Shown here one piece after another: positions 1,768 to 51,552 of a stretch of 51,645 nucleotides of DNA. The stretch lies in IMG/VR virus record IMGVR_UViG_3300023232_000001, positions 1-51,645 of that record. The stretch is one strand, 5' to 3'. The notes under the pieces were generated by a model. The model was not told the DNA's origin. It was given only the letters and a program-made list of their open reading frames with translations, and ran no database searches. The stretch's first letter is position 1; every line of letters begins with the position of its first letter. The translations under genes and the position numbers were made by a program. Source of the DNA: a virus (taxonomy: Duplodnaviria; Caudoviricetes).

Positions 1768-2142
1768 CTATTCGTTTAGTATTGTATAGGAATCTAGCAC
1801 TTCAAAGATTTTCAGTAATAGATCTCCCTTAGTCTCTTTTACAGAGATAAATTTCAGTAATACTTTTTTAGTATTTTCATCAAATAAATCAATTTTTTCC
1901 AACAACGTATTTGTATTTTCATCAAGTAAAGTAGCATTGTATTTTTGATTTGTTCTACCTAATAAATAATCTAAACTAACATTGAAAACAGTAGCGATAT
2001 TTAAGAGCATATCGAAGTCAGGTTGATTTGTACTATTCTCATAAGCAGTTATTGTTGTTCTTACTACGTTTAGACGAATTGCTAAATCATTTTGAGTAAG
2101 TCCAATACTTTCCCTGAGTGTTTTTAAACGTGTTCCAAACAA
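1768..2142 (-). CDS. XRE-family HTH transcriptional regulator
   Basis: RLKTLRESIGLTQNDLA...YEN...VSLDYLLGR; start refined to TTG 2142 after AAGGAG. Confidence 0.85.
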   Translation of the reverse strand: MFGTRLKTLRESIGLTQNDLAIRLNVVRTTITAYENSTNQPDFDMLLNIATVFNVSLDYLLGRTNQKYNATLLDENTNTLLEKIDLFDENTKKVLLKFISVKETKGDLLLKIFEVLDSYTILNE

Positions 2143-2582: not shown

Positions 2583-3884
2583 ATGTTCGATAATGAAATA
2601 ATATCACCAAACAGTAAAATAAAAAAAATAAGGAAACAATTTCTTAGAGCAACTCAGGAAGAAATTGCATATAATGTGTGCACCAAAACAAATATATCCA
2701 AAATTGAAAGCGGAAAACAAAAATTAACATTTTCTTTAGCAGCTGGACTTGCAAAAAACTTTAATAGAATTGCAGCCGAAAAAAAAATGGATATAGAAGA
2801 AATAACCGCCGAATGGCTGATGAAAGATGAATCAAACAAAGCAAATGAAATGTTTGAACAGATTCTTAACGAATTAAATGGAATAAATAAACTAATTATA
2901 TTCGAGGAAAGACTAGCTGATGCAGAAAGCTTAATAGAAAAACATACTATTTTAGGTAATAAAAAAATACAGTTGTACAAATTAGCATCTTTTTTTTACT
3001 TTGATAAATTTATTTACTCTAAATCTGATGAAATGTGTACTATTGGATTAAAGATATGCTTTAGCAATCAAAATTACTTAGAAGAAGCACATTTTTATGT
3101 TACTAAAGCTAGAAATAATTTTAATAAAGGTAGGTTTAAATATGCTCTAGAGCAATTAGAATATGCAGAAAGAATAAATAGGCAAGAGGATAATGAAGAA
3201 CTCTTTGATAGAATCTATTTTAACAAAGCAATAGTGTATAATAATATGAAAGAATATACTAATGCATTTAAACAATTAGACATCTTAAAGGATAAACACA
3301 ATCTAAACAAAAGGAAGCTATTAGATATAAAAATGTTATATGCTAATTGTTTGATGGATCAAAAAAGTTTTGACAAGGCCGAAAAAGAATATATAAGTAT
3401 ATTAGAACCAGCGATGCAACTTGATGATAAAGAAATACTATCATTGGCATACAGGAATTTGTCTGAATTATATCTATTACAAAAAAAATATAAAGACGCA
3501 GAAATATCTATAAAAGAATCTTTAAGGAACAATGATGAAAATAGACATCTTAATTCTGATTTAATATTTGCATCAAAAGTGATGAAAAGTGTTAATAAAG
3601 ATGCTACAATATATCTATTACAAGCACTAGATATATGCGAAAAAAAAGATAAAGAAAATTTAAGGTTAATCGAAAAAATAATATTTGAACTTATAAAAAT
3701 TTATGAAGAAAGAGACGATGAAGAAGGAATTGATTTTTTCGTTCAAAAATCATACGAACTGAATATAGACTATAGCTTAATATTACAACATCTTGCAGAA
3801 TACTATAGATATAGCAATATAGAAAAAAGTGTATATTTAAGTGAAAAATCTATGAATAAACATAACGAAATTAAAGATTTTTAA
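2583..3884 (+). CDS. RRNPP-family peptide-sensing regulator (XRE HTH + TPR repeats), AimR/Qsr-like
   Basis: N-terminal KIKKIRK..TQEEIA..CTKTNISKIESG HTH; TPR-like helices (YFNKAIVY, AYRNLSELY); 433 aa; followed by a small secreted peptide gene. Confidence 0.88.
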   Translation: MFDNEIISPNSKIKKIRKQFLRATQEEIAYNVCTKTNISKIESGKQKLTFSLAAGLAKNFNRIAAEKKMDIEEITAEWLMKDESNKANEMFEQILNELNGINKLIIFEERLADAESLIEKHTILGNKKIQLYKLASFFYFDKFIYSKSDEMCTIGLKICFSNQNYLEEAHFYVTKARNNFNKGRFKYALEQLEYAERINRQEDNEELFDRIYFNKAIVYNNMKEYTNAFKQLDILKDKHNLNKRKLLDIKMLYANCLMDQKSFDKAEKEYISILEPAMQLDDKEILSLAYRNLSELYLLQKKYKDAEISIKESLRNNDENRHLNSDLIFASKVMKSVNKDATIYLLQALDICEKKDKENLRLIEKIIFELIKIYEERDDEEGIDFFVQKSYELNIDYSLILQHLAEYYRYSNIEKSVYLSEKSMNKHNEIKDF

Positions 3885-3976
3885 AAAAAAAATATTTTTA
3901 TCGTAAATTCTATGATTATGGTACAATATTAAGTGTAAATTAGTCGACAGACTTAACTTTTCAAGGAGGTATTTTA

Positions 3977-4138
3977 ATGAAAAAAGTTGCATTATCGTTA
4001 GTTATGGGAGTTATGCTTTTAGCAAGCACAATAACAGTACAAGCTAAAACAGTAGATACTTCAAAAAGCTCAACAATAGCACCTACAACAAACTCAACCA
4101 TCTACCATCTTCAAAGCGAAAATCCAACAGGCTGGTAA
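3977..4138 (+). CDS. Secreted signalling pro-peptide, 53 aa (MKKVALSLVMGVMLLASTITVQAKTVDTSKSSTIAPTTNSTIYHLQSENPTGW)
   Basis: Not in ORF track; RBS AAGGAGG; Sec signal (MKK + hydrophobic core + VQA); directly after receptor; followed by terminator. Confidence 0.88.
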   Translation: MKKVALSLVMGVMLLASTITVQAKTVDTSKSSTIAPTTNSTIYHLQSENPTGW

Positions 4139-4142
4139 AATC

Positions 4143-4179
4143 AAAAAAACCACTATTTATTAGTGGTTTTTTTATTTTT
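4143..4179 (+). terminator. Intrinsic terminator after peptide gene
   Basis: AAAAAAACCACTA-tttat-TAGTGGTTTTTTT. Confidence 0.85.
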
Positions 4180-4188
4180 AAAACGACT

Positions 4189-4261
4189 AAAAGTTGAGCG
4201 CAATTTTGTCGTTACTCTCAACTTTTCCGATATTGTAAAATCAAGGGGAAATCTATATAAT
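4189..4261 (+). promoter_or_regulatory. Inverted-repeat operator plus promoter P1 (candidate RRNPP-receptor target)
   Basis: AAAAGTTGAG(4189-4198)-N18-CTCAACTTTT(4217-4226), 6 bp upstream of TTGTAA(4233)-N17-TATAAT(4256). Confidence 0.6.
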
Positions 4262-4345
4262 TAGCTTATAGTAAGCATTAAGAAAAAATAATGAATAAAT
4301 ATAATGAATTAAGATATAAATTCAGGAATTATTGCGGCTCCTATG

Positions 4346-4385
4346 CGAACACCAGTTTGCATTAGAGCCAAAGTTATGCTAAAAT
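4346..4385 (+). promoter_or_regulatory. LexA (SOS/Cheo) box overlapping promoter P2
   Basis: CGAAC-ACCA-GTTTG (4346-4359) overlaps the -35 of TTGCAT(4357)-N17-TAAAAT(4380), which has an extended TGn -10. Confidence 0.65.
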
Positions 4386-4414
4386 TATATATAATATTTC
4401 AGGGGGGAATTATC

Positions 4415-4522
4415 ATGAAAGAGCAGATATTTGAATTAATTAAAGATATTAATAATCCGAAAATACTAAGTCTTATACACGCATATGTAAAAGCATTAAA
4501 AGAAATAGCAGATACTAAATAG
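4415..4522 (+). CDS. 35-aa putative antirepressor (MKEQIFELIKDINNPKILSLIHAYVKALKEIADTK)
   Basis: Not in ORF track; RBS AGGGGGG; two amphipathic helices; convergent with the repressor, stops 6 bp apart. Confidence 0.65.
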   Translation: MKEQIFELIKDINNPKILSLIHAYVKALKEIADTK

Positions 4523-4528
4523 TACCTG

Positions 4529-4924
4529 CTATTTCTTTGACTCTATTATACCATCAATCAATGTTAAAATAGAATTAATATATTTATCATCTAGTTTCAT
4601 CATTTTTTGAATAAGTTCTTTTAATTTTTCATTTTTTGACAAAGATATTTCAGCAAGCAATTTTGCGATTTTTTCATCATCCTTAAATGATGTGTATATA
4701 GCTCCATTTCCTTCGAGCAACCAATTCTCACTTACATTAAATTCTCTACTAATTAATTTAATTAAAGATGTTTTTTGCTCTGGTTTAGCGAGTCTATTTA
4801 ATTCTATATTTGCAATAACCGATCGAGTAACTCCTAGTTTTTCTGCGAACTCACTCTGAGTTAACTTATTATTTTTTCTAACTTCTTTTATTCTTTCATA
4901 AGTTTCTATTGTTCTCACCTCCAA
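4529..4924 (-). CDS. CI-like XRE repressor without an S24 autopeptidase domain
   Basis: RIKEVRKNNKLTQSEFAEKLGVTRSVIANIE..VSENWLLEG; 131 aa; divergent from lytic operon; exact start uncertain. Confidence 0.85.
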   Translation of the reverse strand: MEVRTIETYERIKEVRKNNKLTQSEFAEKLGVTRSVIANIELNRLAKPEQKTSLIKLISREFNVSENWLLEGNGAIYTSFKDDEKIAKLLAEISLSKNEKLKELIQKMMKLDDKYINSILTLIDGIIESKK

Positions 4925-4933
4925 TATATATAT

Positions 4934-5033
4934 ATATTAGCACACAATGTTGTGTCAGTCAACACAAAACAAAAGCGAACAAAAAAGTGTTGACTAATAC
5001 ATTGAAAAGAAATAAAATGTGTATAAGAACACA
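4934..5033. promoter_or_regulatory. Divergent promoter switch with three operators
   Basis: Plus TTGACT(4990)-N17-TAAAAT(5013); minus TTGACT(4962)-N17-TAATAT(4939); operators TGTGT-N6-ACACA at 4951 and 5018, AGTGT-N6-ATACA at 4986. Confidence 0.75.
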
Positions 5034-5051
5034 AATGAGGGGGGTTTGTTA

Positions 5052-5222
5052 GTGAACAGTGAAAAAATATTAAGTTCAATTCCTAAACTACAGAAACTTG
5101 ACGATAAAAACATTAATTTAGTGTCAAGTGTAATTGATTCTTTTCTCGCGGTACAGGCTGTTGAACAGGCTTGTAAAAATCCATTAGCATTACAAAAATT
5201 AGTTGCTTCTATGAAGATTTAA
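5052..5222 (+). CDS. Cro-position protein lacking an HTH, similar to the repressor C-terminal domain
   Basis: GTG after GAGGGGGG; KLDDKNIN..ID versus repressor KLDDKYIN..ID. Confidence 0.7.
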   Translation: MNSEKILSSIPKLQKLDDKNINLVSSVIDSFLAVQAVEQACKNPLALQKLVASMKI

Positions 5223-5233
5223 AAACAAAATAG

Positions 5234-5509
5234 GTGATAGAGTTTAAAGAAAATTGGTTTGCATTGTTCATCTGCATTATTAGTGTTAAAAAAACATCAA
5301 TTGATAAGTCATTAATGCAAATGGGGTTGCAAGAATCAGTTGTACGCGGGAAGCAACAACACCCTAGAAAAAGTAAATATTTAAAAGAAGATGTAAATCT
5401 TCTTTTAAAACTCAAGCAAGAGGGTAAATCTAACAAAGAAATAGGACAAATTGTAGGGCTTAATAGGAATCAAGTTTATGGAGTTATAAAAATGTATAGA
5501 AAGAGGTGA
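5234..5509 (+). CDS. Small protein with C-terminal HTH
   Basis: GKSNKEIGQIVGLNRNQVY. Confidence 0.7.
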   Translation: MIEFKENWFALFICIISVKKTSIDKSLMQMGLQESVVRGKQQHPRKSKYLKEDVNLLLKLKQEGKSNKEIGQIVGLNRNQVYGVIKMYRKR

Positions 5510-5513
5510 AATT

Positions 5514-6296
5514 ATGAGTGAAAAAAATGAAATACAAATAATCGGTGTTCTATCAAAAGGTTATGGAATAATGCCTAAAATGGTTGCTTTAGATAAAAAT
5601 TTATCTCTAGAAGCAAAGGGAATTTATTCATTTCTAACTTCATTCTCAGGAGTAGGACAAGGTGTATTTCCATCAGTAGAAATAATTCTTAATTATTTAA
5701 AAATATCGGAAAAAAGATATTATAAATATAGAAAAGAACTGATTCAAAATGGTTATATAACTGTAAAACCTAGGTATTGTGATAATAAAAGAATAAGTAA
5801 TCTCTATATATTGCATATGGATAAAATAGTACCCAGTCAAATTGAACGTGTACAAATTGAAGGCGTACAAATTGAAAGCGTACAAATTGACGTCAGTAAC
5901 AATAACAACTTAAACAATAACAACTTAAACAATAACAATATACAACAACAACTAATCAAAATAGATAATGTTCTTTCAGACTTTAAAATTAAAGAAAGAG
6001 AATCGATTAAAAAATATTGTATTGAAAATAATGTTTCTTCTGTTGTTGTTGTTGAAAAGTTAGAAATATTAAAAACTATGAAAACAATAAGGAATAAAGT
6101 TGGTGCATTACTTACAGCTCTAAAAGAAGATTGGAAACCGACAAAAGAGACAAGCAATACTAATTTAAAGTTTAATAATTTTGAAGGAAGAGAAAAAAAT
6201 GAAAGATATGCTTACTTGGAGGAACAATGTTTATTAGGTCAAGCAAGTGAGGCAGAACGAATTGAATTTGATGAAATGAGAGGTGGAAGTTTATGA
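5514..6296 (+). CDS. Replication initiator protein 2 (lytic replisome organiser)
   Basis: GYGIMPK..D..LSLEAKGIY HTH; internal iterons; position in early lytic operon. Confidence 0.82.
   Translation: MSEKNEIQIIGVLSKGYGIMPKMVALDKNLSLEAKGIYSFLTSFSGVGQGVFPSVEIILNYLKISEKRYYKYRKELIQNGYITVKPRYCDNKRISNLYILHMDKIVPSQIERVQIEGVQIESVQIDVSNNNNLNNNNLNNNNIQQQLIKIDNVLSDFKIKERESIKKYCIENNVSSVVVVEKLEILKTMKTIRNKVGALLTALKEDWKPTKETSNTNLKFNNFEGREKNERYAYLEEQCLLGQASEAERIEFDEMRGGSL
5835..5939 (+). repeat. Iterons inside rep2 (putative lytic origin)
   Basis: CAAATTGA at 5838, 5853, 5868, 5883 (15-bp period), followed by AACAATAACAACTTA tandem repeats. Confidence 0.8.
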
Positions 6297-6448
6297 GTGA
6301 AAAAGAGATATTACAAAAGAAAGTAGTTGAAAGCCTGTTAATGTATGGCGGTTATGATGAAAGAACAGTTGAACTAAGTCAGCAATTAGACGTTATTATG
6401 GTAGCAGAGCAAAGAGTATCAATGGGACTCAATAAATTTAGGTGCTGA
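6293..6448 (+). CDS. Spo0E-like aspartyl-phosphate phosphatase, 51 aa
   Basis: Not in ORF track; MSEKEILQKKVVESLLMYGGYDERTVELSQQLDVIMV..; SQxLD signature; ATGA overlap with rep2 stop. Confidence 0.7.
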   Translation: MSEKEILQKKVVESLLMYGGYDERTVELSQQLDVIMVAEQRVSMGLNKFRC

Positions 6449-13012: not shown

Positions 13013-13216
13013 ATGAATATAGGATTAATGATTGCTACAGAAAGAACTAAACAGAATTTATCTACAAAAAAGTTAGCAGAAGCAGCTGGATGCACTTCAA
13101 GAGCTATTGAATATTGGGAAAATGGCAAAAGAGGGATAAGCCTTGAATATGCAGATAAAATATTTAAAGCACTGGGAAAAACAATTACTATTGGTGTTAA
13201 AAATGATGAACAATAG
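13013..13216 (+). CDS. XRE-family HTH protein
   Basis: LSTKKLAEAAGCTSRAIEYWENGKR. Confidence 0.85.
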   Translation: MNIGLMIATERTKQNLSTKKLAEAAGCTSRAIEYWENGKRGISLEYADKIFKALGKTITIGVKNDEQ

Positions 13217-13254
13217 TTCGTAATACTACTATTTTAATAGAAAGGAAGATTTAT

Positions 13255-13617
13255 ATGAGAGAAATATTATTTAGAGGTAAAGATAGATTAGGTATTTGGC
13301 ATTATGGATATTTACATGCTGATACTATAACAGGAGCAGATAAGTATTATATAAATTCAAGAATAAGCGTTAATAATCCTGATTTCATGGAAGTTGATAA
13401 ATCAAGCATAGGACAATTTACAGGAGCCAATGACATTGATGGGGATAGTATATTTGAAAGAATGACAGTAAATCAAAAATCATCAGTACTTGGTGATGAA
13501 GATGTTAATTTTACTGGTGAAGTTAAATTTTATGATGGTTGTTTTTGGATTGATAATGGAAAAGATGCAATTCTTTTGTGTAATGAAATACGTGAAAACA
13601 AAATAATAGAAGATTAA
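13255..13617 (+). CDS. YopX-family protein (copy B, paralog of 12229)
   Basis: Near-identical N-terminal half and RBS region to copy A. Confidence 0.8.
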   Translation: MREILFRGKDRLGIWHYGYLHADTITGADKYYINSRISVNNPDFMEVDKSSIGQFTGANDIDGDSIFERMTVNQKSSVLGDEDVNFTGEVKFYDGCFWIDNGKDAILLCNEIRENKIIED

Positions 13618-16076: not shown

Positions 16077-16244
16077 ATGACAGTAAAACGTATTTTAAGG
16101 GAAAACGATGTTGGCAGCTATAATAAATTGATGAAAATTAAAGATAAAAAGAAAGATGAGAAATTAAGTGAGCGTGAAATAGAAGAGTTAATGTCTCATT
16201 CTTCCTATAAAAGACATAAGGGTGCGATGAAGCAGGTGAAGTAA
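16077..16244 (+). CDS. 55-aa protein coupled to recombinase
   Basis: Not in ORF track; RBS AAAGGGGG; ..EELMSHSSYKRHKGAMKQVK; TAATG overlap. Confidence 0.65.
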   Translation: MTVKRILRENDVGSYNKLMKIKDKKKDEKLSEREIEELMSHSSYKRHKGAMKQVK

Positions 16245-16897
16245 TGGAAGAAGAGAAAAAAAGGGATTGGGAGAAGGGAACAGCAGCACCTATTCCGGAT
16301 AATAAATATGAAAAATTCAAAGAAGAATTAAAAGAATATAGCAAAAAGTATTCGGATAGAAATTTCACTCTATTTATGTTGGCAAGAGCAACAGGATATA
16401 GATTAGGGGATCTAGTCGGATTAACTGTAGGGCAAATAGAAGATGCGCTTGATGAAGGACGTTTTTTAATTCAGGAAAGTAAGCAGTACAAGCAATGGCT
16501 ATCTAATTTAAGTAAATATCCCAATAGGCCATGCCCTAAAAAAAGAGATGCTGATATAGAAAAACCATTAAGAGATGTATTAGAAAAATATATAGCTAAA
16601 AAGAAGAGAAAAGATTTCGCATTTCCTTCAAATAAAGGAGATGGAAGTGAATATATTAGTCCAAAATCATATAGTGCAATACTTACTGCAGTTGGAAAGA
16701 AAATGAATCTGAGGCATATAAGTGGACATAGTCCTAGAAAAACATATGCGACAAAGATATATGAAAAGTCAGGGCATGATATTGAGACTGTTAGGATAGC
16801 TTTAGGACATAAAAGCATAGAGGAAACAAAACTATATTTAGGAACAAAAAATAAGATGAAAAGGGATGCTGCAAAGATGGCTGCAGAAGGAATTTAA
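16244..16897 (+). CDS. Short tyrosine recombinase (catalytic domain only)
   Basis: TGYR.GDL, HSPRKT, LGHKS..ET..Y; 217 aa, no arm- or core-binding N-terminal domains. Confidence 0.92.
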   Translation: MEEEKKRDWEKGTAAPIPDNKYEKFKEELKEYSKKYSDRNFTLFMLARATGYRLGDLVGLTVGQIEDALDEGRFLIQESKQYKQWLSNLSKYPNRPCPKKRDADIEKPLRDVLEKYIAKKKRKDFAFPSNKGDGSEYISPKSYSAILTAVGKKMNLRHISGHSPRKTYATKIYEKSGHDIETVRIALGHKSIEETKLYLGTKNKMKRDAAKMAAEGI

Positions 16898-18031: not shown

Positions 18032-18198
18032 TAATTCGCAATACTAATAAATAGGGGAAATCAAATGAGTATCAAAATTAACGCAGAAAGAAAAAGTATT
18101 AAAAGTTATTGATATTCTATTTTAAATCTGATATATTTACAGTATCAAATAAAACGGTCGTTAGAATAAATACTATATTTTAATATGAGGTGAAAGAT

Positions 18199-18900
18199 AT
18201 GAATAAAATATATGGTTATTGTAGAATATCAACTAACAAGCAATCAATTGAGAGACAACATAGAAATATATTATCAGAATATCCAAACTCAATGATAATC
18301 GATGAAGTATTTACTGGAACAAAAATTGAAACTAGAAAAGAACTTACAAAATTATTAAGTAAGATATCTGAAGGAGATATAATAGTTTTTGATTCAGTAT
18401 CACGTATGAGTAGAAATGCTGATGAAGGATATAAACTATATGAAGATCTATTCAATAAAGGAATAGAATTAGTATTCTTGAAAGAGCAGCACATAAATAC
18501 ATCGACATATAAGAAAGCATTAACTAATAATATAGAAATGACTGGAACTAATGTTGATTTCATATTAGAGGGAATAAATAAATATTTATTAGCATTGGCC
18601 AAAGAACAAATTAAATTAGCGTTTATTCAATCAGAAAAAGAAGTCGAAGATCTTCATCAAAGAACAAAGGAAGGTATAGAAACAGCAAGATTAAATGGTA
18701 AGCAAATAGGGCAGAAAAAAGGCATTAAGATTATAACTAAGAAAAGCGTTGAAGCTAAAGAACATATTTTGAAGTATAGTAAGGATTTTCAAGGAACTCT
18801 AAATGATATTGAGGTTATGAAATTAATAGGACTTGCAAGGAATACCTATTATAAATATAAAAAAGAGTTAGTTCAAGAATTAGAAACAGATATAAATTAA
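18199..18900 (+). CDS. Serine recombinase, resolvase/invertase family (1 of 4)
   Basis: YGYCRIST..Q..RQ, DSVSRMSR, C-terminal HTH RNTYYKY. Confidence 0.92.
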   Translation: MNKIYGYCRISTNKQSIERQHRNILSEYPNSMIIDEVFTGTKIETRKELTKLLSKISEGDIIVFDSVSRMSRNADEGYKLYEDLFNKGIELVFLKEQHINTSTYKKALTNNIEMTGTNVDFILEGINKYLLALAKEQIKLAFIQSEKEVEDLHQRTKEGIETARLNGKQIGQKKGIKIITKKSVEAKEHILKYSKDFQGTLNDIEVMKLIGLARNTYYKYKKELVQELETDIN

Positions 18901-21054: not shown

Positions 21055-21235
21055 AAAAATTTAGTGTCTATAAATCATATGAATTGATAAACAAAGAATA
21101 AGAGAGTAAATTAAAGAGAAAGTGTAGATAAATAGGAGTAATTATTTATTATTAATGTCTATGATATTTGTATATGATTTTATAGACAGTTATAATAATA
21201 TCATAAGATAAGTTAATCGAAAGGGATTGATAATT

Positions 21236-21865
21236 ATGATATTTGGATATATGAGAATTTCTACACAAAAGGAAAAGCAAACAACTGACCGCCAAAGAAT
21301 AACTTTAGAGCAGTATGCAGCAGCTAATGAATTTACATTTAATGAATTAGTTGAAGAAAGAATTTCAGGAACAATTCAAGCAGATCATAGACCACAATTT
21401 TCTATGTTAAAATCAAAACTTAGAAAAGAGGATATATTAATTATCACCGATATTGATAGGCTAGGAAGAAATGCTGATGATGTTATAATGGAATTTAAAA
21501 AGCTAAAAGTTGAAGGAATAAGAATAATTGCTCTTGATACTCCTTATTTAAATGAATGGGAAAAGATTCAAGATTCTAGCATTTACAATATGATAGCAGA
21601 TATATTTATAACACTTAAGGCACATATGGCCCAACAAGAAAGAGAAAAGATAGTTTCACGTATAAATCAAGGGTTAGCGGTAGCAAAAGCTAGTGGAACA
21701 CAATTAGGGAGACCAAAAGCTGAGTTATCAGATGATTTTATAAAACAATATGATAAATTTAAAAAAGGCGAATATGGGAATATTTCAGCTAGTGGATTTG
21801 CGAAAATGTTAGGCATTGGCAGAAGTACTTTATATAAATATATAAAAATATATGATGAACAATAA
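21236..21865 (+). CDS. Serine recombinase, resolvase family (2 of 4)
   Basis: FGYMRIST..Q..RQ, DRLGR, LGRP, GRSTLYKY. Confidence 0.93.
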   Translation: MIFGYMRISTQKEKQTTDRQRITLEQYAAANEFTFNELVEERISGTIQADHRPQFSMLKSKLRKEDILIITDIDRLGRNADDVIMEFKKLKVEGIRIIALDTPYLNEWEKIQDSSIYNMIADIFITLKAHMAQQEREKIVSRINQGLAVAKASGTQLGRPKAELSDDFIKQYDKFKKGEYGNISASGFAKMLGIGRSTLYKYIKIYDEQ

Positions 21866-24352: not shown

Positions 24353-24952
24353 ATGATATTTGGATATTGTAGATGTTCAACCAATGAATCTAAGCAAGAT
24401 ATAAGTAGACAAGAAAGAGATTTAAAAGCATTAGGTGTTACAGAGAAAAGAAATGTATATAAAGAATATGAAAGCGGTACTAAGCTTAATAGAGTTCAAT
24501 TACAAAGGCTCTTAGATATAGTTGCTGAAGGGGACACTATTGTATCTACAGAAGTATCCAGAATTACAAGAAGTACAAAGCAGCTATGTGAAATAATAGA
24601 ATTTGCAAAGAATAAACGTTTGAGGCTTATATTTGGAACATTCATCGTTGATTGTACAAAAGAACTAGACCCAATGACAGAAGGAATGCTTAAGATGATG
24701 GGTGTATTTTCTGAGATAGAAAGAAATATGATAAGTCAAAGAGTTAAAAGTGGAGTGGCTAATGCAAGAGCTAAAGGTAAAATTGTAGGACGGCCACGAT
24801 TAACATTCAAAAAGATACCTCAGAAGATAAAAGATTTATATGATATATATGATAATGGAACTATTAGTAAAACAGATTATGCTAAGATGTGTAATGTATC
24901 AAGGCCGACACTAGATAAATATTTAAATATAATAAAAGAAGGATGTGTTTAA
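24353..24952 (+). CDS. Serine recombinase, resolvase family (3 of 4), between terL and portal
   Basis: FGYCRCST, SRITRS, GRP, SRPTLDKY. Confidence 0.93.
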   Translation: MIFGYCRCSTNESKQDISRQERDLKALGVTEKRNVYKEYESGTKLNRVQLQRLLDIVAEGDTIVSTEVSRITRSTKQLCEIIEFAKNKRLRLIFGTFIVDCTKELDPMTEGMLKMMGVFSEIERNMISQRVKSGVANARAKGKIVGRPRLTFKKIPQKIKDLYDIYDNGTISKTDYAKMCNVSRPTLDKYLNIIKEGCV

Positions 24953-50860: not shown

Positions 50861-50883
50861 TATAATAATATGAGGTGGATAGT

Positions 50884-51552
50884 ATGAGTAATTATTTTAG
50901 CTACATGAGAATATCAACAAAAGAGGCATCGGATAAACAAAGTTTTAACAGACAAGAGAAGAGTTTAAAAGCATATGCAGAAAATGACAAAATTGAATAT
51001 ACACTAAGTTTTAAAGATGATTGTACAGGCTCAACATTCAACAGACCTAATTGGATAAGGTTAGAAAGTTTACTCCATGAAGGTGATACAATTATATTTA
51101 AAGAAATATCACGTTTCACAAGACAAGCAGAAGAAGGCTATAAAAAATTCATGGAATTAATGAATAAAGGAATTAATCTTATCTTTATAGATAATATGAC
51201 CGTTTCAACTGATTATATAAAGAATTTAACAAGGGTAGCACATGAACAAGATTTAGTGGCTAAGACTGCATTAGAAAGCACTATAAAATTACTATTAATA
51301 GTTGAATTGGATAGAGTACAGAAAGAGCGTGAGATAATTGTTAAACGCATAAAACAAGGTATTGATGCATCAAACAAAAAAAGTGGTAGAATTAATGGCA
51401 ACTTAGATAAAATGTCTAGTGAGTTGAGAAGTGATATAGTTGAGTTTGTAGGAAATAGAAGTATTAAACAAATTGATTTGATGAATAAACACAATATCAG
51501 CAGAAATACATTAAAAAAATATGTTGAAATAGTTAAAAGTGAGGCTAAATAA
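50884..51552 (+). CDS. Serine recombinase, resolvase family (4 of 4)
   Basis: FSYMRIST..Q..RQ, ISRFTR, SGR, SRNTLKKY. Confidence 0.92.
   Translation: MSNYFSYMRISTKEASDKQSFNRQEKSLKAYAENDKIEYTLSFKDDCTGSTFNRPNWIRLESLLHEGDTIIFKEISRFTRQAEEGYKKFMELMNKGINLIFIDNMTVSTDYIKNLTRVAHEQDLVAKTALESTIKLLLIVELDRVQKEREIIVKRIKQGIDASNKKSGRINGNLDKMSSELRSDIVEFVGNRSIKQIDLMNKHNISRNTLKKYVEIVKSEAK

Follow-up and report, generated by a model that had tools for sequence, protein, structure and literature searches.

A candidate arbitrium-type communication switch with a clostridial QssR-type receptor in a temperate phage

A temperate phage record of 51.6 kb (Caudoviricetes; IMG/VR record IMGVR_UViG_3300023232_000001, positions 1 to 51,645; the whole stretch is called the window here) carries between positions 2583 and 5222 a peptide receptor, a propeptide, a small open reading frame (ORF) and a convergent phage repressor, and is best read as the logic of the extended arbitrium module of Bacillus phages, in its phi106 form, rebuilt with a QssR-type receptor. 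The feature is real and well formed, and is likely to be an arbitrium-type switch with a clostridial receptor of this type. A first-pass annotation, made from the sequence alone, had suggested an arbitrium-like switch at this place, and the parts it listed (a gene of 433 amino acids (aa), a 53-aa ORF, a terminator, a promoter region, a 35-aa ORF, the convergent repressor and its operators) were all found where it had put them; the paired receptor-type operators and a LexA-type box are additions to that list (Table 1). The suggestion gains support from the recurrence of the layout with different repressors and from its match to the phi106 design aimR-aimP-LexA box-aimX-aimC, on which a corresponding function is presumed.

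Table 1. Features of the candidate switch, followed by two neighbouring genes, in window coordinates (HTH, helix-turn-helix; TPR, tetratricopeptide repeat; RBS, ribosome-binding site).
Feature	Position	Strand	Basis or detail
RRNPP receptor, QssR-type, 433 aa, HTH and TPR repeats	2583..3884	+	Pfam, AlphaFold model, tree, structural match
Propeptide promoter TG-G-TACAAT and candidate receptor operator 1, TTAAG-N18-CTTAA	3919..3956	+	operator at 3929-3956, just 3' of the -10
Predicted secreted propeptide, 53 aa, ends HLQSENPTGW	3977..4138	+	RBS AGGAGG at 3964
Intrinsic terminator after the propeptide	4143..4173	+	-15.9 kcal/mol
Candidate receptor operator 2, TTGAG-N18-CTCAA, A/T flanks	4189..4226	+	11 nucleotides (nt) 5' of the -35 of the output promoter
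Output promoter P1, TTGTAA-17-TATAAT	4233..4261	+	same distance to the symmetric site in related loci
LexA-type SOS box GAAC-N4-GTTT overlapping the -35 of the weaker promoter P2	4347..4385	+	box 4347-4358; P2 4356-4385
Helical ORF, 35 aa, predicted anti-repressor (AimX-like role)	4415..4522	+	family profile, SOS-box enrichment
Hairpin between the convergent 35-aa ORF and repressor, likely bidirectional terminator	4499..4538	.	-19.9 kcal/mol
XRE repressor, short (129-131 aa), helical C-terminal domain, no self-cleavage domain	4529..4924	-	domain searches and model
Divergent promoters and candidate repressor operators TGTGT-N6-ACACA	4934..5033	.	4951, 5018; degenerate 4986 (2 mismatches)
56-aa ORF without HTH, first gene of the early lytic operon	5052..5222	+	resembles repressor C-terminal helices
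Accessory XRE regulator, divergent from the receptor	1768..2142	-	HTH_3, E 9e-13
Replication initiator-like gene, early lytic operon	5514..6296	+	HTH_36 and PHROG replication-initiation matches

The receptor is assigned to the QssR type of RRNPP receptors, and not to AimR, on the grounds of sequence identity, its place in the tree, very low profile scores against two AimR proteins and the published clan placement. It matches TPR_12 in Pfam (E 3e-8) and HTH_19 weakly, and its AlphaFold model (mean pLDDT 93) shows an N-terminal HTH followed by a long helical repeat. A structural search with this model has NprR as the top match (Z 26.2, root-mean-square deviation 7.1, 337 aligned), tied with generic TPR proteins, and among the best 50 structural matches listed both NprR and Rap stand level with such proteins. 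NprR, PlcR and RapJ are among the matches of the receptor profile to solved structures, while an AimR entry is found neither among the 35 solved-structure sequence matches nor among the matches listed by Foldseek and VIA-align. Among 102 sequence matches, 101 are near-full or partial relatives with 39-76% identity. Four proteins named C. saccharoperbutylacetonicum are 45-50% identical over the full length, and 46% identity is shared with the receptor of L002/L053, a locus with two spo0E-like genes and an adjoining solvent operon (the operon read from translations), which is the QSS5 arrangement (PMC7206700). By the subfamily definition, which asks for 30% or more identity to QssR across 80% of the length (PMC10075063), the receptor counts as QssR in comparison with these named proteins and L002/L053 rather than with the reference AGF59421.1 itself.

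Identity to the C. acetobutylicum plasmid regulator is 25.6% over 74%, and 25-30% to the Qsr-like entries, which together with the position of the propeptide proline places receptor and propeptide outside the Qsr subfamily as defined by the same thresholds of identity and length and a proline at -5. A rapidly searched tree of 50 receptors, in which L176 and L208 have long branches, puts the receptor within the QssR-like clade (SH-aLRT 96) and separate from the Qsr-like entries (100). AimR was represented by two proteins, those of phi3T and Waukesha92 from named records, against which the receptor family profile reaches a probability of 1.7% and 0.8%, respectively; the hidden Markov model of the receptor scores 0.7 and -7.9 bits on them, as against 78-134 bits on Qsr-like receptors. 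QssR has been grouped with NprR and Rap, and AimR placed in a different clan (PMC12700828). The profile and tree placement that the first-pass annotation had proposed as a check of its 'Qsr/Qsp-type receptor' thus keeps the RRNPP architecture of HTH and TPR, and moves the protein from Qsr to the QssR-like clade, apart from AimR. Viral contigs, scanned with the receptor as a single sequence, gave no match, nor did 50,697 phage records at E 1e-5, with five weak Rap-type matches at E 1. A receptor with 53% identity in L029 (6001-9193) is followed, with no propeptide found, by a gene of 526 aa that looks like a plasmid-replication gene.

A basic N-terminus opens the propeptide; a hydrophobic core follows, in which the Kyte-Doolittle mean over 11 residues reaches 2.58, then VQA ahead of a polar spacer, and the C-terminus is polar. 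This profile fits the Sec-signal propeptide of the first-pass annotation, and a C-terminal 6-10-mer near (LQS)ENPTGW is predicted to be released from the propeptide as the signal. A propeptide of 50-64 aa follows the receptor in 15 of the 15 receptor entries of L001-L014. The propeptide of the close relative L028 ends HLQSEDPTGW and the differences in run X4 amount to the same exchange of N for D amid synonymous changes; compared with L028, 7 of 18 spacer codons are non-synonymous and 2 in the last 12 codons. The likeness to QspB that had been proposed extends to Leu at -9 and Trp at -1 and is otherwise loose, because the proline stands at -4 and that of QspB7 (AEPTWGW) at -5 (PMC7376267). Searching with a degenerate pattern for the peptide end gave no match. 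The AimP of Waukesha92 (L247 1948-2094) ends SEPGGGGW, like the (D/N)PxGW ends of phage-linked QssP-like peptides, the receptors being without sequence similarity.

Both the propeptide and the output promoter are accompanied by a symmetric site, and TTRAG-N18-CTYAA has two copies in the whole window, at 3929 and 4194. Operator 1 is a direct repeat with 4194-4227 and is found as the same site in L028, while the half-sites of operator 2 change together and symmetrically to TTAAG/CTTAA in L028 and run X4; between P1 and the 35-aa ORF no terminator was found. The arrangement recurs in related loci, with a perfect 5-bp inverted repeat, a 17-19-nt spacer and an end 10-12 nt 5' of the promoter in 13 of 17 QssR-like loci, three of the others having one mismatch and one having no promoter (chance 0.011 per position; half-sites vary by locus). 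As these loci are related, the pattern was derived by looking at the same 17 and some of the repeats are strong terminator hairpins, the operator-promoter spacing shows a conserved geometry rather than binding. As a family feature operator 1 is weak, some perfect repeat being present at 10 of 17 propeptide promoters, 7 of them in register, at a high chance rate of the scan. The spacers often contain TGTCG or AGTCG (window 3940-3948 and 4207-4213; several QssR-like promoters), which is close to the Spo0A box (consensus TGNCGAA).

Downstream of P1, GAACACCAGTTT at 4347 fits the clostridial LexA consensus (PMC4234289) and is a candidate LexA site, although the SOS box by itself is weak evidence because the window holds five sites of the pattern versus 1.66 expected. 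More telling is the family to which the 35-aa ORF belongs: the ORF scores 42.6 bits against a family profile built without itself and its closest relative, that of the phage L060, and among the distinct ORFs of the family, 32 of 39 have an SOS box within 150 nt upstream (17 of 23 sequence clusters), as compared with 43 of 1934 ORFs outside it. The family spans clostridial and gut phages and is convergent on short, non-cleavable XRE repressors; among 98 repressor-relative loci, with 58 distinct repressors, 44 had a convergent small ORF, 32 of the 44 with an SOS box. These ORFs of 32-44 aa, seen beside the repressor in L016-L025 and L060-L145 and often too short for annotation, are likely to be LexA-controlled anti-repressors. 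The 35-aa ORF has no Pfam or NCBIfam match, and one relative has a weak match to an unnamed PHROG.

The CI-like repressor with operators of the first-pass annotation corresponds to the XRE repressor and its candidate sites. Its model has three C-terminal helices, and the top Foldseek rows include SinR/SinI (E 5e-4) and AimC 9sf2 and 9iaq (E 3e-3 to 5e-3), which are weak and largely HTH-driven matches. The pattern of a small SOS-boxed gene next to a non-cleavable repressor is that of an anti-repressor, and the two proteins would bind; a complex prediction for them scored 0.01 and 0.04 against a mark of 0.32, which, the fold of the partner being uncertain, speaks neither for nor against such binding. 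On the lytic side, the 56-aa ORF is 43% identical over 30 aa to the repressor C-terminus (pairwise E 9e-6), and relatives of it occupy this position in 7 further loci that were aligned. A reading of this ORF as Cro was ruled out, as it has no HTH and its similarity is to the repressor C-terminus; a divergent Cro-like HTH gene, as in the aimL position, is not found there, and a weak HTH gene comes next (5234-5509). Such an HTH-less repressor mimic is also the first lytic-side gene in L060 (4697-4867) and in L140-L145.

Mosaic relatives mark how these parts are joined. The DNA of L028 matches that of the window (81%) between 2459 and 4226, where operator 2 ends, and includes a receptor with 75% identity and the same operators; beyond 4226 it goes on with a promoter of its own, a perfect SOS box, an ORF of 20 aa and a terminator, and then with a repressor whose likeness is limited to the HTH and a Cro in divergent orientation. 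In run X6, a contig leaves the window sequence at the same base and then resembles L028. From the other side, the 42-kb phage L060 aligns at 72% over 4389-5222, the module of ORF, repressor and mimic, with a small ORF of 71% identity and a one-mismatch SOS box (read by eye), and has neither receptor nor propeptide. As a contig in run X4, from another study, covers 3531-5600 without a break and with 93 differences, a chimeric assembly is excluded as the source of the junction. By these alignments one cassette feeds two different repressor modules, one of which also occurs cassette-free, and the circuit is likely to have arisen by a QssR-type cassette plugged ahead of an existing SOS-controlled anti-repressor/repressor module.

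The peptide-receptor cassette probably serves as a phage-to-phage lysis-lysogeny switch, in which the peptide-free receptor turns the predicted anti-repressor on and the peptide turns it off. The propeptide would be exported, cut to a C-terminal peptide near (LQS)ENPTGW and re-imported. With little peptide around, a receptor dimer on operator 2 would activate P1, and the 35-aa protein could then bind the C-terminal helices of the repressor, block its oligomerisation and free the early lytic promoter; with much peptide, the receptor would release the DNA, the repressor would hold and the phage would stay or become dormant. LexA at 4347-4358 might bring in DNA damage as a second input, whereby the two promoters may require damage and low peptide together, as in phi106, or either may be enough, and the 56-aa repressor mimic may lock in lysis. 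The sign of the switch is deduced from the operator position, from the rise of downstream spo0E-like transcripts upon qssR overexpression (PMC7206700) and from the counteraction of QsrB by the QspB peptide (PMC7376267).

Several observations weigh against this switch. In a survey of 80 receptor entries from 75 loci (10 of 85 loci were dropped, having no complete receptor ORF; the closest receptors P0003-P0005, 55-76% identical, stand outside these genomic-context counts), a convergent HTH gene within 1.3 kb was found in 8, and the full layout in just 4 (the window, L028, L176 and L208); of the 26 QssR-like entries just 2 have it, and a spo0E-like gene is the output in 11 QssR-like entries (three tested, all matching Pfam Spo0E). 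The SOS box is absent at the corresponding place in L176, L208 and L012, and the same GAACACCAGTTT box precedes spo0E-like genes, hence the box is no specific sign of the switch. The 'operator' of several relatives forms a strong hairpin of terminator type (L004, -22.5 kcal/mol). The 35-aa family and the repressor C-terminus are only weakly alike (hhalign probability 20%; no BLAST alignment), and the effects of QssR on qssP reversed their sign with the medium (PMC7206700). Finally, a QssR-like receptor occurs in 0 of 98 repressor-relative loci (six with only 1.5 kb of flank), from which it follows that the ORF-repressor module functions without a receptor. The cassette could accordingly be a passenger which acts elsewhere or idles, with the 35-aa ORF driven by the LexA-controlled P2 alone as in cassette-free phages; the overlap of P2 with the SOS box and the presence of QssR-like cassettes in many contexts, prophage ends included, would fit. 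This is nevertheless unlikely, given that two different repressor modules join the same cassette at the same point, that operator 2 and P1 are kept facing the ORF with no terminator found in between, and that the operator half-sites change symmetrically.

A cassette that controls the switch by another route is quite improbable. Anti-termination at operator 2, which also folds weakly as an RNA hairpin followed by U's (-10.3 kcal/mol), would be one such route, antisense RNA against the repressor another, and the opposite sign, with the peptide-bound receptor activating and high density leading to lysis, a third; NprR, the best structural match to the receptor, becomes active upon binding its peptide. 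Anti-termination is the reported mode of action of AimR (bioRxiv 2025.11.23.689978), but in the window the terminator is a distinct element further upstream, a near-consensus promoter follows downstream at a fixed distance, the ORF and the repressor have a strong hairpin between them, and antisense RNA was found to be dispensable in the extended systems of Bacillus (bioRxiv 2025.11.23.689978). Least probable is a cassette whose main task is to manipulate the host, namely its sporulation and solvent formation, via host promoters or cross-talk with host peptides as proposed for Qss5. The nearest characterised family does affect solvents, motility and sporulation (PMC7206700), prophage-borne Qss5 has been proposed as a sporulation hijacker (bioRxiv 2021.07.15.452460), and a weak Spo0E-like ORF (6293-6448, E 0.004, under the cut-off) is present in the window; yet the gene behind operator 2 is the 35-aa ORF and not spo0E, the operator motif is, within the window, confined to the two cassette sites, and most spo0E-linked propeptides end DPH, DPY or DAQ rather than PxGW.

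The two other elements with the full layout have receptors 27-28% identical to that of the window. L176 lies on a phage-plasmid (L241/L242, G176:C2, 36.7 kb) with a ParM-like gene and the order receptor, propeptide ending DDPAPW, 44-aa ORF, repressor, Cro and initiator, and L208 on an element resembling an integrative and conjugative element (L243/L244, G328:C45 870-902 kb) with integrase, MobL relaxase, coupling protein, receptor, propeptide, 83-aa ORF and convergent repressor; a Cro-like divergent HTH gene is present in L028 and L176. L187 (a 358-aa protein, no small ORF) was set aside from the count. Three loci count as partial only: L012 has a 19-aa ORF and a 74-aa XRE nearest to the accessory XREs, and L001 and L003 have 20-23-aa basic ORFs and HTH genes cut at the record ends. 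The cassettes of the latter two (L001 7397-8306, L003 7399-8277) stand at prophage ends, where the convergent HTH gene starting at the record end was possibly cut by integration. The GAACACCAGTTT box of some spo0E-linked QssR-like loci is found in QSS5-type loci at 7769-7780 of L002, at about 8508 of L004 and in L053, which suggests that DNA damage feeds into these sporulation regulators and that the block came from phages.

Terminase, portal, capsid, sheath, holin and endolysin genes and a contractile tail complete the phage. Its host would be a Clostridium, judging from its relatives, and likely one of soil or peat, and neither the phage nor the host is in culture; the metagenome runs that hold parts of the region are mostly from peat, the best of them may be the sample of origin, and among the listed holders none is an RNA run. 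The accessory XRE regulator is 51% identical over 84 aa to an XRE gene beside the repressor module of the cassette-free phage L060 and is assigned to the phage backbone, outside the peptide cassette. Replication-initiator-like genes with similar C-terminal ends flank the switch (852-1730 and 5514-6296). Next to the repressor no integrase was found, and ParM has no match in the window, which has four resolvase/invertase genes (18190-18900, 21227-21865, 24353-24952 and 50875-51552), one of them between terminase and portal, and a small tyrosine recombinase (16244-16897). A perfect palindromic SOS box (13208-13219) lies just 5' of a YopX-like ORF (13255-13617).

In the literature examined, peptide signalling between phages for lysis-lysogeny has been validated for the AimR systems of Bacillus only, and if a non-AimR receptor serves this logic in Clostridia, the circuit would have been assembled convergently, with L028 and L060 marking the junctions where it was built. 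Prophage-borne QssR systems have been reported as sporulation hijackers (bioRxiv 2021.07.15.452460), and the literature searches turned up no QssR-type system connected to a phage repressor, although supplementary tables may list such loci. The system, compact at about 2.7 kb and with a short candidate peptide, draws attention to a family of SOS-controlled genes of 32-44 aa, so far overlooked, that neighbour non-cleavable repressors in phages of gut and soil. A phage origin of the Qss systems of solvent-producing clostridia is a further reading that it offers. Tentatively, clostridial phages and conjugative elements might have built arbitrium-type communication independently of Bacillus, and more than once, from QssR and related RRNPP cassettes on interchangeable anti-repressor/repressor modules, while chromosomal Qss-spo0E, with its link to solvent formation and sporulation, would be a domesticated phage cassette that kept operator, promoter and sometimes the SOS box.

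Among peptide systems of clostridia, Qsr/Qsp of C. acetobutylicum (PMC7376267) likewise has an HTH-TPR receptor followed by a propeptide, shares the Leu at -9 and the Trp at -1, and differs in its separate receptor clade and proline position. Closer is QssR/QssP of C. saccharoperbutylacetonicum, prophage-borne Qss5 included (PMC7206700; bioRxiv 2021.07.15.452460), with the same receptor family, a 52-53-aa propeptide, a conserved block of operator and promoter and, at part of the loci, this SOS box as well; the output there is spo0E, whereas in the window it is an anti-repressor candidate that faces a phage repressor. The lytic arm resembles LexA-controlled anti-repressors of non-cleavable phage repressors and SinI/SinR, with an SOS box before a small gene by a protease-less repressor and the size and pattern of a helical hairpin. 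The circuit as a whole is nearest to the extended arbitrium module aimR-aimP-aimX-aimC-aimL of phi106 type (bioRxiv 2025.11.23.689978; bioRxiv 2021.09.20.460909), in which gene order and orientation are those of the window. In phi106, AimR and LexA are integrated at aimX and the small AimX protein binds the repressor at the C-terminal domain; this comes from a survey of Bacillus genomes in which clostridia are not mentioned (bioRxiv 2025.11.23.689978). Common to both are the terminator after the propeptide, the LexA box ahead of a tiny ORF, the replication genes downstream and, in the window, a short repressor without cleavage domain that is structurally near AimC and SinR. The differences are a receptor without detectable similarity to the AimR of phi3T or Waukesha92, the clostridial host group and the aimL position, held in the window by a repressor mimic and not by a Cro-type HTH gene. 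While aimC and aimL are reported to be rare outside arbitrium, the anti-repressor/repressor pair of the window type is widespread without any peptide system. On this comparison the window system would work like the extended arbitrium module, with its receptor recruited from outside the AimR family.

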